A stretch of 64,000 bases of DNA, from the NCBI RefSeq assembly GCF_003790525.1, contig NZ_CP033635.1; one strand, given 5' to 3'. The notes under the pieces were generated by a model, which worked only from the letters and a program-made list of their open reading frames with translations, was not told the DNA's origin and did no database searches. Of this stretch, positions 1 through 52,052 are shown piece after piece. A program made the position numbers and the translations under genes. The stretch comes from Escherichia coli (GTDB lineage Bacteria; Pseudomonadota; Gammaproteobacteria; Enterobacterales; Enterobacteriaceae). Every line of letters begins with the position of its first letter. Position 1 is the stretch's first letter.

Positions 1-434
1 CCTCGTATGACGAACTCAGTACCATGCTCGACCAGCGACAGCAAACCCTGCTATTGCCAGAGAGCGCCGCCGACATCACCGTTCAGGGTGATGCAACCCT
101 GCTGCGGATGTTATTGCGAAACCTGGTAGAAAACGCCCATCGTTACAGCCCGCAAGGCAGCAACATTATGATTAAGCTGCAAGAAGATGGCGGAGCAGTC
201 ATGGCCGTTGAAGATGAAGGACCGGGTATTGATGAGAGTAAATGCGGGGAGTTGAGTAAAGCGTTTGTACGTATGGACAGCCGTTATGGCGGGATTGGTC
301 TGGGGTTAAGTATTGTCAGCCGCATTACACAGTTGCATCACGGGCAGTTTTTCCTGCAAAACCGGCAAGAGACTTCCGGCACGCGGGCCTGGGTACGGCT
401 GAAGAAAGATCAGTACGTGGTAAACCAGATATAA
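1..434 (+). CDS. basS: Sensor histidine kinase BasS/PmrB, C-terminal fragment (5' end lies outside window)
   Basis: ORF track 24..434, open in frame to window start; HATPase_c-type motifs ([25 protein letters not shown]); convergent with proP and overlapped by pmrR as in E. coli. Confidence 0.8.
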
Positions 435-499
435 AGAAAGCTGCTGACCACCAGCACGCTGAACACGGTAGTTAAACTTTCATAAACACGGTTTTTCAT
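410..499 (-). CDS. pmrR: Small membrane peptide PmrR (29 aa)
   Basis: Read by eye: ATG..TGA ORF translating [29 protein letters not shown] with GGAGGAGAG RBS just upstream; overlaps basS 3' end on the opposite strand; coordinates +/- 1-2 nt. Confidence 0.55.
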
Positions 500-569
500 T
501 GCACTCTCCTCCGTTAACCTGGAGGAGAGTATGCGCGTCAGAGATTAAGTGAACCTTAAGAGTTCAATT

Positions 570-6234: not shown

Positions 6235-6312
6235 AAGCCGGATAAGGCGCTCGCGCCGCATCCGGCAACGATGCCGACTGCCTGATGCGACGCTGACCGC
6301 GTCTTATCAGGC
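6235..6312. repeat. REP cluster between yjdM and yjdN
   Basis: GCCGGATAAGGCGC...GCATCCGGC and GCCTGATGCGACGCTG...TCTTATCAGGC palindromic units. Confidence 0.6.
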
Positions 6313-6377
6313 TTCCCTCTCATCTGTATAAATTTCGAACTACACTTAACTGGCTTCTCTTAACTGAGGTCACCATC

Positions 6378-32395: not shown

Positions 32396-32429
32396 AATGT
32401 CTACCGCGTGATGGCTGTCACGCGGTATT

Positions 32430-32462
32430 TCGTTTCGTCACGTCAAAACTGACGACAGCCTG
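32430..32462 (+). promoter_or_regulatory. Putative FhlA upstream activating sequence for fdhF
   Basis: Inverted repeat TCGTCACGTCAAAACTGACGACA about 100 bp upstream of the sigma54 promoter. Confidence 0.35.
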
Positions 32463-32523
32463 TTTTTCGTCAGAGTTTTGAATAAATAGTGCCCGTAATA
32501 TCAGGGAATGACCCCAAATAAAA

Positions 32524-32543
32524 TGTGGCATAAAAGATGCATA
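32524..32543 (+). promoter_or_regulatory. Sigma54 (-24/-12) promoter of fdhF
   Basis: TGGCAT-N6-TGCA matches the TGGCAC-N5-TTGCA consensus, about 50 bp upstream of fdhF ATG. Confidence 0.6.
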
Positions 32544-32592: not shown

Positions 32593-34740
32593 ATGAAAAA
32601 AGTCGTCACGGTTTGCCCCTATTGCGCATCAGGTTGCAAAATCAACCTGGTCGTCGATAACGGCAAAATCGTCCGGGCGGAGGCAGCGCAGGGGAAAACC
32701 AACCAGGGTACCCTGTGTCTGAAGGGTTATTATGGCTGGGACTTCATTAACGATACCCAGATCCTGACCCCGCGCCTGAAAACCCCCATGATCCGTCGCC
32801 AGCGTGGCGGCAAACTCGAACCTGTTTCCTGGGATGAGGCACTGAATTACGTTGCCGAGCGCCTGAGCGCCATCAAAGAGAAGTACGGTCCGGATGCCAT
32901 CCAGACGACCGGCTCCTCGCGTGGTACGGGTAACGAAACCAACTATGTAATGCAAAAATTTGCGCGCGCCGTTATTGGTACCAATAACGTTGACTGCTGC
33001 GCTCGTGTCTGACACGGCCCATCGGTTGCAGGTCTGCACCAATCGGTCGGTAATGGCGCAATGAGCAATGCTATTAACGAAATTGATAATACCGATTTAG
33101 TGTTCGTTTTCGGGTATAACCCGGCGGATTCCCACCCAATCGTGGCGAACCACGTAATTAACGCTAAACGTAACGGGGCGAAAATTATCGTCTGCGATCC
33201 GCGCAAAATTGAAACTGCGCGCATTGCTGACATGCACATTGCATTGAAAAACGGCTCGAACATCGCGCTGTTGAATGCGATGGGCCATGTCATTATTGAA
33301 GAAAATCTGTACGACAAAGCGTTCGTCGCTTCCCGTACAGAAGGCTTTGAAGAGTATCGTAAAATCGTTGAAGGCTACACGCCGGAGTCGGTTGAAGATA
33401 TCACCGGCGTCAGCGCCAGTGAGATTCGTCAGGCGGCACGGATGTATGCCCAGGCGAAAAGCGCCGCCATCCTGTGGGGCATGGGTGTAACCCAGTTCTA
33501 CCAGGGCGTGGAAACCGTGCGTTCTCTGACCAGCCTCGCGATGCTGACCGGTAACCTCGGTAAGCCACATGCGGGTGTAAACCCGGTTCGTGGTCAGAAC
33601 AACGTACAGGGTGCCTGCGATATGGGCGCGCTGCCGGATACGTATCCGGGATACCAGTACGTGAAAGATCCGGCTAACCGCGAGAAATTCGCCAAAGCCT
33701 GGGGCGTGGAAAGCCTGCCTGCTCATACCGGTTATCGCATCAGCGAGCTGCCGCACCGCGCAGCGCATGGTGAAGTGCGTGCCGCGTACATTATGGGCGA
33801 AGATCCGCTACAAACTGACGCGGAGCTGTCGGCAGTACGTAAAGCCTTTGAAGATCTGGAACTGGTCATCGTTCAGGACATCTTTATGACCAAAACCGCG
33901 TCGGCGGCGGATGTCATTTTACCGTCAACGTCATGGGGCGAGCATGAAGGCGTGTTTACTGCGGCTGACCGTGGCTTCCAGCGTTTCTTTAAAGCAGTTG
34001 AACCGAAATGGGATTTGAAAACGGACTGGCAAATCATCAGTGAAATCGCCACCCGTATGGGTTATCCGATGCACTACAACAACACCCAGGAGATCTGGGA
34101 TGAGTTGCGTCATCTGTGCCCGGATTTCTACGGTGCGACTTACGAGAAAATGGGCGAACTGGGCTTCATTCAGTGGCCTTGTCGCGATACTTCAGATGCC
34201 GATCAGGGGACTTCTTATCTGTTTAAAGAGAAGTTTGATACTCCGAACGGTCTGGCGCAGTTCTTCACCTGCGACTGGGTAGCGCCAATCGACAAACTCA
34301 CCGACGAGTATCCGATGGTACTGTCAACGGTGCGTGAAGTCGGTCACTACTCTTGCCGTTCGATGACCGGTAACTGTGCGGCACTGGCGGCGCTGGCTGA
34401 TGAACCTGGCTACGCACAAATCAATACCGAAGACGCCAAACGTCTGGGGATTGAAGATGAGGCATTGGTTTGGGTGCACTCGCGTAAAGGCAAAATTATC
34501 ACCCGTGCGCAGGTCAGCGATCGTCCGAACAAAGGGGCGATTTACATGACCTACCAGTGGTGGATTGGTGCCTGTAACGAGCTGGTTACCGAAAACTTAA
34601 GCCCGATTACGAAAACGCCGGAATACAAATACTGCGCCGTGCGCGTCGAGCCGATCGCCGATCAGCGCGCCGCCGAGCAGTATGTGATTGACGAGTACAA
34701 CAAGTTGAAAACTCGCCTGCGCGAAGCGGCACTGGCGTAA
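32593..34740 (+). CDS. fdhF: Formate dehydrogenase H (selenoprotein, molybdopterin enzyme), 715 aa with in-frame UGA at 33010-33012
   Basis: Track ORFs 32593..33012 and 33061..34740 are in the same frame, separated only by a TGA followed by a stem-loop (SECIS); N-terminal Fe-S motif CPYCASGC. Confidence 0.95.
33010..33055 (+). other. UGA selenocysteine codon plus bacterial SECIS stem-loop of fdhF
   Basis: In-frame TGA followed immediately by CACGGCCCATCGGTTGCAGGTCTGCACCAATCGGTCGG hairpin. Confidence 0.8.
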
Positions 34741-34752
34741 TACAGTCCTTTC

Positions 34753-34783
34753 TACAGCCTCCTTTCGGAGGCTGTTTTTTTAT
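34753..34783 (+). terminator. Rho-independent terminator of fdhF
   Basis: CAGCCTCCTTTCGGAGGCTG hairpin followed by TTTTTTT. Confidence 0.7.
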
Positions 34784-35523: not shown

Positions 35524-35680
35524 TGTAGGCCTGATAAGACGCGTTAATCGTCGCATCAGGCGTTGATGTCGGATGCGGCGTAAACGCCTTATCCGACCTA
35601 CAAAATCACGCTAAATCAGGCTATTGCGCTGTCTGACGTAGGCCTGATAAGACGCGGCAAGCGTCGCATCAGGCATCCAC
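35524..35680. repeat. BIME: at least three REP units between yjcO and gltP
   Basis: Alternating AGGCCTGATAAGACGCG...GCATCAGGC and CGGATGCGGCGTAAACGCCTTATCCGACC units. Confidence 0.65.
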
Positions 35681-35714
35681 ACATTGCCGGGTGGATATCC
35701 CCGGCAATCTTCAA

Positions 35715-38391: not shown

Positions 38392-39996
38392 TCAACAATC
38401 CTCCCCCCAGATCCAGCGCACACCGCTTTGTACATACAAACGAAAAGCGTAACGATCCGGCCCAGTTTTCTCCCCCATGACCGCATACCAGTCATGGATG
38501 CCGTTCCAGCGAATTGACGGTTCCATCATTTGCTGACGGCGTGCTTCATAAAAACGCCGCTCCGGCGTCAGTTCACCAATACGTTGCTGATGGTCAAACA
38601 GTGCCACTATCGCTTTTTCGCTGGTGTAATTGCCTCTGGCTTGCAGATCGAGACGCTCAAAACGGAAGGCGTATCCTGCCAGCGTCACCTGCTGACCCGG
38701 CTGTAAATTCAGGCTGATCTCCTGACGGCTGACGCTGGAGACCACGATCCCTGCGGCAAATAACAGCACGCCCGCATGCGCCAGCAGCGCCGGAAGCTGC
38801 ACGCGTTTGCCAGAGACAAACGTCGCCAGCACAATCACCACCAGCATCAACAGACCAAACGGTAACGTCGCACGGTTAAAATACGGCGCGCCAACGGAGA
38901 GGCGTCCCCAGCCCAGCAGGCCGTAAATCATCGGATAAAGCGTTCCCACCAGCACGATCAGTAGCACTGCGCAAAACAGCAACAGCGTAGCGAGGATTAA
39001 CATTTCCCGCGATAACCCCGAAAAACGCACCGCCGGGCCACCGTCCCGCGCTCGCCAGCCATACAGAGTCAGAGACGCAAGGCTAATCAGTGCAAACAGG
39101 CTGAACAACGGCACGGCGCGAACGTTATCCAGCGCGAACGCATGAACCGAAACCAGAATGCCAGAACGGACAATTAAGGTGCCCAGCAGCGACAGCATCA
39201 GAGTAACTATCGCCAGTAACAGCGACCAGTGGCGGAAAATCCCCCGCTGGCGTGTCAGGGACAAACTGTGCAGCAGCGCAGTGGCAGAAAGCCAGGGTAA
39301 TAAAGAGGCGTTTTCCACCGGATCCCAGAACCACCAGCCGCCCCAGCCCAGTTCGCAATAGGCCCACCAGGAACCGAGGATGATCCCCGCCGTTAATGCC
39401 CCCCAGCCTGGTAGTGCCCAGCGCCAGCAAATTCGGGCGCAGGTACCATCAAACTCGCCGCGCAGTAAACTCGCCAGCGCCACGCTCGCCGCCACCATCA
39501 AACCGCCGTAGCCGAGATAAAGCAGCGGTGGATGAAAGATAAGACCGGGATGTTGCAGCATCGGATTGAGATCGCGGCCTTCGATTGCTGGCGGAAATAT
39601 CCGCACGAAGGGATCGGACCACAGCACTACAAACAGTAGCAGTGCGGCGAGCATGAGAGATAAAACGGCTAGCGTCAGCGGAAATAGCGGATCGGTTTGC
39701 TGCCGATAATGCCAGGCAAACAGCGCGCTCCAGGCGGAAAGCAGCAGCACCCAAAGCAGCAGCGAACCTTCATGACCGCCCCACACCGCCGCCAGTTTGA
39801 GTTCCCACGACAGCAGGCTGTAGCTATGTTGGGCGACATAAATGACCGAGAAATCGCTGATGAGAAAACAATACGTCAGTACGCCAAAGGCGAGCAGCAG
39901 GAGCGCGAACTGCGCCAGAATGCCGATGCAAGTGAGTCGCATCATGGCAGGCCAGCGCAACCGCACTCCCGCAAAGGCCGTCAACGGGGTCAACAC
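38392..39996 (-). CDS. nrfE: Nrf heme lyase NrfE (CcmF-like), apparently C-terminally truncated by a frameshift; possible pseudogene or sequence error
   Basis: Track ORF 38392..40020 (TTG-called start) trimmed to in-frame GTG; WGGHEGSLLLW CcmF-type motif; ORF ends ...VRWIWGEDC while the expected hydrophobic C-terminus is encoded downstream in another frame. Confidence 0.75.
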   Translation of the reverse strand: MLTPLTAFAGVRLRWPAMMRLTCIGILAQFALLLLAFGVLTYCFLISDFSVIYVAQHSYSLLSWELKLAAVWGGHEGSLLLWVLLLSAWSALFAWHYRQQTDPLFPLTLAVLSLMLAALLLFVVLWSDPFVRIFPPAIEGRDLNPMLQHPGLIFHPPLLYLGYGGLMVAASVALASLLRGEFDGTCARICWRWALPGWGALTAGIILGSWWAYCELGWGGWWFWDPVENASLLPWLSATALLHSLSLTRQRGIFRHWSLLLAIVTLMLSLLGTLIVRSGILVSVHAFALDNVRAVPLFSLFALISLASLTLYGWRARDGGPAVRFSGLSREMLILATLLLFCAVLLIVLVGTLYPMIYGLLGWGRLSVGAPYFNRATLPFGLLMLVVIVLATFVSGKRVQLPALLAHAGVLLFAAGIVVSSVSRQEISLNLQPGQQVTLAGYAFRFERLDLQARGNYTSEKAIVALFDHQQRIGELTPERRFYEARRQQMMEPSIRWNGIHDWYAVMGEKTGPDRYAFRLYVQSGVRWIWGEDC

Positions 39997-40075
39997 GTTG
40001 ACCCCGAGACTTAACAACAACGCCAGAAAACCGACTTCAGGAAGGAATACGTCCAGAAACCACCTCTGTTCTGGC

Positions 40076-46099: not shown

Positions 46100-46222
46100 A
46101 CAATTGCCGGATGCGATCCGGGCAACAAGTCGGAAACGATTTGTAGGCCTGATAAGACGCGACAGCGTCGCATCAGGCATTGATTGCCGGATGCGGCATA
46201 TAACGCCTTATCCAGCCTACAT
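46100..46222. repeat. REP cluster between acs and yjcH
   Basis: TGCCGGATGCGATCCGGGCA, AGGCCTGATAAGACGCGACAGCGTCGCATCAGGC and TGCCGGATGCGGCATATAACGCCTTATCC units. Confidence 0.65.
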
Positions 46223-51899: not shown

Positions 51900-52052
51900 T
51901 ACAATTAAAGCATCAACACCAACCGGAACCTCCACCACGTGCTCGAATGAGGTGTGTTGACGTCGGGGGAAACCCTCCTGTGTACCAGCGGGATAGAGAG
52001 AAAGACAAAGACCGGAAAACAAACTAAAGCGCCCTTGTGGCGCTTTAGTTTT
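51900..52052 (+). ncRNA. ryjA: Candidate small RNA RyjA convergent with soxR, ending at shared hairpin terminator
   Basis: K-12 has sRNA RyjA between soxR and ghxP; here a GC hairpin plus T-run (~52025-52052) reads as a terminator on the + strand; a TACAAT -10-like element near 51900; boundaries approximate. Confidence 0.3.

Follow-up and report, generated by a model that had tools for sequence, protein, structure and literature searches.

The segment at 32593-34740 on the plus strand of the window (the whole 64-kb stretch of DNA that was analyzed) is almost certainly the Escherichia coli fdhF gene. Its predicted product is a 715-residue molybdenum and selenium enzyme, the formate-oxidizing subunit of formate hydrogenlyase, with an in-frame UGA read by means of a SECIS element. 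The arrangement is already known. It is the Sec140/SECIS arrangement of K-12 fdhF itself, found in another E. coli lineage, and no new biology is involved. For selenocysteine recoding in bacteria, fdhF is the founding case. The value of the case lies in annotation: a naive ORF track splits fdhF in two and could result in its being wrongly called a pseudogene or two separate, spurious genes, and recognition of the UGA and the SECIS restores the 715-aa selenoprotein.

Reading frame and predicted protein

The coding features were placed as follows.

32593..34740, plus strand: fdhF coding sequence, 715 codons and a TAA stop, encoding formate dehydrogenase H (FDH-H); one gene, not two
33010..33012, plus strand: UGA codon 140, predicted to be recoded as selenocysteine (Sec140) from the reading frame, residue X140 of the PDB FDH-H chain and homologues
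33061..33063, plus strand: internal ATG of Met157, the seeming start of a "second ORF" and an ORF-calling artifact; an internal residue in the FDH-H alignment

The ORF list contained two entries for this segment, 32593..33012 (+, 139 aa) and 33061..34740 (+, 559 aa, ATG start). A preliminary description of the sequence had stated that the two share one frame with a TGA between them. This agreed with a single translation of 32593-34740, which gave 716 codons in a common frame with two stops, the terminal one and an internal TGA at codon 140. Translation of the 48 nt that separate the listed ORFs (33013-33060, 16 codons) showed neither a second in-frame stop nor a frameshift. The peptide encoded there is HGPSVAGLHQSVGNGA. 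Beyond the TGA the frame is open for 575 codons. The ORF list splits fdhF because its ORFs restart at the next ATG, that of Met157.

The read-through product, with X at position 140, was identical at 715/715 positions to the chain common to PDB entries 1AA6, 1FDI, 1FDO, 2IV2, and 7Z0T ("formate dehydrogenase H"). This chain has a non-standard residue X at 140, which aligned to the UGA of the window. The NCBIfam equivalog TIGR01591 (Fdh-alpha) scored 1089 bits against a cut-off of 666.25, and its match was one stretch, residues 6-685, crossing the TGA. Cysteines C8, C11, C15, and C42 were present in the translation and are presumably the ligands of the [4Fe-4S] center in the FDH-H structure (the N-terminal cysteine cluster). 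Sec140 is a ligand of the molybdenum center of FDH-H. The residues before the TGA in the window translation are ...TNNVDCCARV, matching the published fdhF, for which a UGA at position 140 and the peptide ...NNVDCCARV-Sec were reported (PMC4513850). In the RefSeq annotation of E. coli SMS-3-5 the locus is a single 2148-nt CDS, "fdhF, formate dehydrogenase subunit alpha," between mdtP and yjcO. The PDB identity, the TIGR01591 match across the TGA, and this single RefSeq CDS bore out the earlier claim of one 715-aa selenoprotein.

The same data bear on a reading of the segment as two genes, in which a 139-aa protein is followed by a separately initiated 559-aa protein. The ATG at 33061 in the ORF list speaks for it, but the 16 intervening codons are in frame and conserved, corresponding to residues 141-156 of crystallized FDH-H, and a single family profile runs unbroken over residues 6-685 with Met157 internal. 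This reading was rejected on the intervening codons and the unbroken TIGR01591 match, and its probability is considered negligible.

SECIS element

The window was searched with Rfam models, and the element was numbered with the U of the UGA (33010) as nt 1. The following features were placed.

33005..33059, plus strand: SECIS element, match to Rfam SECIS_2 (RF01988), 87.1 bits against a gathering score of 70
33010-33049, plus strand: classical 40-nt SECIS hairpin (published extent)
33024..33040, plus strand: apical 17-nt mini-hairpin GGUUGCAGGUCUGCACC, nt 15-31, starting 11 nt past the UGA; a stem-loop in the predicted folds

The RF01988 match was full-length (model positions 1-55), with an E-value of 1.4e-18 for a 5-kb search and of 1.8e-17 for the 64-kb window. 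On the SECIS_3 model the element scored 35.8 bits against a gathering score of 63. It was the only SECIS match in the 64-kb window. The other selenoprotein genes of E. coli are fdnG and fdoG, for formate dehydrogenases N and O. In these molybdopterin enzymes too, an in-frame UGA of the coding sequence comes immediately before a hairpin that binds SelB. The hairpin sequence of their SECIS elements is unlike the window element, and neither gene is in the 64-kb window, as judged by the single SECIS match in the Rfam search.

A stable stem-loop directly after the TGA had been described. A hairpin starting at the TGA was indeed predicted, with a minimum free energy of -14.9 kcal/mol for 33010-33055, and of -19.7 kcal/mol for 33005-33059. 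The energy was not statistically unusual compared to shuffled sequences (z = -1.33 for the 46-nt and -1.23 for the 55-nt segment), and 22-25 of 200 shuffles folded equally well. The hairpin part of the description therefore stands, while the free energy does not set the SECIS apart from chance and the thermodynamic support for the word "stable" is weak. The SECIS is recognized by its specific sequence and shape, and sequence plus structure are far beyond chance.

An 11-nt spacer occupies nt 4-14 (33013-33023). The apical hairpin at nt 15-31 (33024-33040) was read as GGTTGCAGGTCTGCACC. U17 is the T at 33026, and in the predicted fold one of two neighboring U's is unpaired between two apical helices. 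The apical loop is GGUC, with G23 at 33032 and U24 at 33033. The published E. coli fdhF SECIS is 40 nt in total. Its upper stem-loop of 17 nt covers nt 15-31 and is separated from the UGA by 11 nt, and the bases U17, G23, and U24 are critical (PMC8659212). The predicted layout of the window element is exactly that of the published element. The RF01988 score and this layout mark the element as a bacterial fdhF-type SECIS, and the extent first given for the hairpin, 33010-33055, was essentially right compared to the Rfam and published extents.

Comparison to E. coli K-12 and other E. coli genomes

The fdhF coding sequence was compared to that of K-12 MG1655. There were 27 nucleotide differences (98.74% identity), of which 27 were synonymous and 0 non-synonymous. 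All 27 are past nucleotide 525 of the coding sequence, downstream of the TGA. With 27 silent changes and no replacements, the comparison shows purifying selection in the fdhF frame on the part downstream of the TGA. Since all of the differences are synonymous, fdhF is not a pseudogene, in agreement with the preliminary description. The 55-nt SECIS was identical at 55/55 positions to K-12, and with the TGA at codon 140 the proposed combination of Sec140 and SECIS held. K-12 fdhF (b4079) is like the window gene in codon 140, the 55-nt SECIS, the protein sequence, and the neighbors (mdtP upstream and yjcO downstream). It is unlike it in the 27 synonymous substitutions of the coding sequence and in two differences in the upstream 197 nt.

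A 2.5-kb fdhF region was found in 5419 of 5426 complete E. coli genomes and was 100% identical to SMS-3-5, KFu014, and others. At least 99% identity over the 2.5-kb region was seen in 2052 of the 5420 E. coli records carrying it, and the 55-nt SECIS was exact in 5411 of these 5420. The 25-kb flanks on both sides were 100% identical to E. coli. The window thus belongs to an E. coli lineage other than K-12, its fdhF region being 100% identical to that of SMS-3-5 and KFu014.

Seven of the 5426 complete genomes had no match to the fdhF region, though selAB and selD were each found in 5425. Four to six matches to fdhF or its SECIS in the E. coli genome collection were on records labelled as plasmids.

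Homologues in other species

The exact apical 17-mer was scanned in one genome per bacterial and archaeal species. At least 120 matches were obtained in approximately 6e11 positions searched. Among the 120 matches listed, 89 had a TGA exactly 11 nt upstream and SECIS-like flanks. The TGA-bearing loci among the matches listed were mostly from named Enterobacterales, including Citrobacter, Enterobacter, Klebsiella, Salmonella, Serratia, Budvicia, and Arsenophonus, and a few were from unclassified metagenome-assembled genomes (L020 and L035). The other 31 of the 120 listed had unrelated flanks and no TGA and came from unrelated phyla, which is the chance level for a 17-mer in approximately 6e11 positions. 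In all of the 89 TGA-bearing loci listed (89/89) the TGA was in frame, at the same position, inside an FdhF homologue of 69-100% identity. The frame past the TGA runs for 574-579 codons in every listed locus that reaches a stop codon, with one exception (L059).

These loci, together with the K-12 comparison, bear on whether fdhF is a pseudogene created by a nonsense mutation, with the 559-aa ORF as a decaying remnant. The sole support for this is the in-frame TGA that splits the ORF list. Against it, the TGA is at the same codon in K-12 and in the 89 listed loci of other species, the 27 of 27 K-12 differences downstream of the TGA are all synonymous, the downstream frame is open for 575 codons, and the full-length protein including residue 140 has been crystallized. 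The pseudogene reading was refuted by the synonymous-only divergence and the cross-species conservation, and its probability is almost negligible. An intact fdhF with a recoded UGA is the preferred reading.

The exceptional locus, L059, is a second copy in Cedecea neteri (NZ_BCTL01000022.1). Its frame past the TGA is open for 64 codons only, though the locus continues, and this copy may have a frameshift or have become a pseudogene. Two fdhF paralogues, each with a TGA and an identical apical hairpin, were seen in Pluralibacter gergoviae, Cedecea neteri, Silvania confinis, and Klebsiella oxytoca (locus pairs L030/L031, L059/L060, L071/L072, and L078/L079).

Cysteine-containing FdhF homologues and the engineered U140C form of FDH-H share the fold and active-site position of FDH-H. 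They differ from the window gene in having a UGC or UGU sense codon with no need of a SECIS or sel genes, where the window has a TGA and an intact SECIS. The cysteine form of FDH-H is presumably far less active.

Covariation was assessed in 33 distinct SECIS sequences from other species, with the apical 17 nt fixed by the search pattern. In these, 93.3% of cells were paired. There were 0 double-sided changes, the 20 changes seen being one-sided, with C/U variation opposite G, and the control with shuffles was flat. The alignment thus gives the pairing no support from covariation, as is to be expected of a conserved coding stretch in which the search itself had kept the apical nucleotides constant. 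Third-codon-position entropy was calculated for 83 distinct sequences, all of them chosen for carrying the apical hairpin. The mean was 0.56 bits in the SECIS codons outside the search pattern compared to 0.97 bits in 80 flanking codons (Mann-Whitney test, one-sided, p = 0.006). The paired fourfold-degenerate third positions of Gly142 (GGC), Ser144 (TCG), and Gly155 (GGC) were invariant, each in 83/83 sequences. Third positions predicted to be unpaired or weakly paired varied, with 1.46 bits at Pro143 (CCN) and 1.57 bits at Ala156 (GCN). Because paired synonymous sites were invariant and unpaired ones variable, there is apparently RNA-level constraint on top of the protein code in the SECIS region, in sequences selected for the apical hairpin. 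This supports the base pairing indirectly.

Selenocysteine insertion

Formate hydrogenlyase depends on selABCD. No tRNA genes were found in the 64-kb window by ARAGORN, and no sel genes were among the annotated genes of the window, which extend from the phn/proP region to uvrA. The K-12 copies of the sel genes were used as queries against the 5426 complete E. coli genomes. selAB was found in 5425, selD in 5425, and selC in 5424 of these. From this species-wide prevalence it is very likely that selA, selB, selC, and selD are present in the source strain.

In the proposed mechanism the mRNA just downstream of UGA140 would fold into the SECIS hairpin as the ribosome nears. The apical 17-nt stem-loop, with its bulged U and GGUC loop, would bind SelB with GTP and Sec-tRNA(Sec). 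This tRNA would come from selC, first receive serine, and then be converted by SelA with selenophosphate from SelD. Once it is tethered at the A site, the UGA would be decoded as selenocysteine and the 575 further codons would be translated. On ribosomes that fail to insert selenocysteine, RF2 would terminate translation and the 139-residue fragment would be released. In K-12 most full-length FdhF is known to have selenocysteine at residue 140.

The apical hairpin at 33024-33040 would be the SelB-binding part, given its identity with the K-12 element. The 55/55 identity to the K-12 element used in published experiments suggests that the window SECIS directs selenocysteine insertion (PMC4513850). 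Recoding of fdhF is approximately 30-40% efficient and RF2 acts on the failing ribosomes (PMC4513850). From established knowledge of the identical element we infer SelB binding, selenocysteine insertion, an efficiency of approximately 30-40%, and dependence of formate hydrogenlyase on selABCD. It is very unlikely that the fragment released by RF2 on approximately 60% of ribosomes is a functional product, such as an Fe-S-binding or selenium-reporting regulatory peptide, and not waste.

The UGA could also be passed mainly by SECIS-independent near-cognate read-through, for example with Trp or Cys, and not by SelB-mediated selenocysteine insertion. A background of approximately 5-8% SECIS-independent UGA read-through was reported in an fdhF reporter, but SECIS- and selenium-dependent recoding reached 30-40% in the same study (PMC4513850), and the window SECIS is nucleotide-identical to the element used there. 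The extra synonymous constraint on the SECIS would be pointless if it had no role, and the sel machinery is near-universal in E. coli. On the SECIS-dependent recoding, the SECIS identity, the constraint, and the prevalence of sel genes this reading was rejected as exceedingly improbable. SelB-mediated insertion of selenocysteine remains the favored account of UGA140.

Flanking regulatory and terminator-like features

Upstream and downstream of fdhF the following features were noted.

32433-32440 and 32465-32472, plus strand: repeated TTTCGTCA motifs, within 32433..32473, conserved with K-12
32449-32455 and 32467-32473, plus strand: inverted CTGACGA/TCGTCAG
32526..32541, plus strand: sigma-54-type -24/-12 promoter-like site TGGCATAAAAGATGCA, upstream of fdhF, identical in K-12
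34754..34775, plus strand: intrinsic-terminator-like hairpin of 9 base pairs, including 6 G-C pairs, with a T-run behind it, 14 nt past the fdhF stop, tail TTTTTTTATCC

Transcription of fdhF presumably starts at a sigma-54 promoter that FhlA and formate activate. The pattern TGGCAY-N5-WTGCW had one match in the 64-kb window compared to 0.61 expected by chance. The pattern alone is little proof of a sigma-54 site, and the putative assignment is based on identity with the K-12 promoter region. From the K-12 literature we take 32433..32473 to be a candidate for the upstream activating sequence of FhlA.

At 32402-32427, just past the mdtP stop codon, there is an inverted repeat with two perfect 10-bp arms, TACCGCGTGA / TCACGCGGTA, and a T-rich tract behind them. 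This element resembles a terminator on either strand and adjoins the fdhF regulatory region on its upstream side.

Other features of the window

In nrfE (minus strand, ORF 38392..40020) a C6 homopolymer is present at 38403-38408, compared to C7 in the SMS-3-5 RefSeq sequence and K-12 (G7 on the coding strand). This is the sole difference from SMS-3-5 in 14.5 kb. It causes a frameshift approximately 22 codons ahead of the normal end. The predicted NrfE ends in ...RWIWGEDC*, unlike the normal protein, and nrfE no longer has its usual overlap of 8 nt with nrfF. An 81-nt sequence with the C6 had exact matches in 54 of 5421 E. coli records. The strains concerned are scattered, a DH5alpha assembly being among them, which suggests either sequencing error in the homopolymer or repeated slippage.

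Matches to Rfam naRNA4 (RF02564), a family of REP/BIME-type palindromic intergenic repeats, were found at 35528-35598 and 35641-35706, between yjcO and gltP, and at 6236-6313 and 46146-46217. Three naRNA4 matches were above the gathering score. Two small-RNA genes, STnc630 (183 bits) and sraL (153 bits), were predicted by Rfam at 403-568 (-) and 51912-52052 (+).
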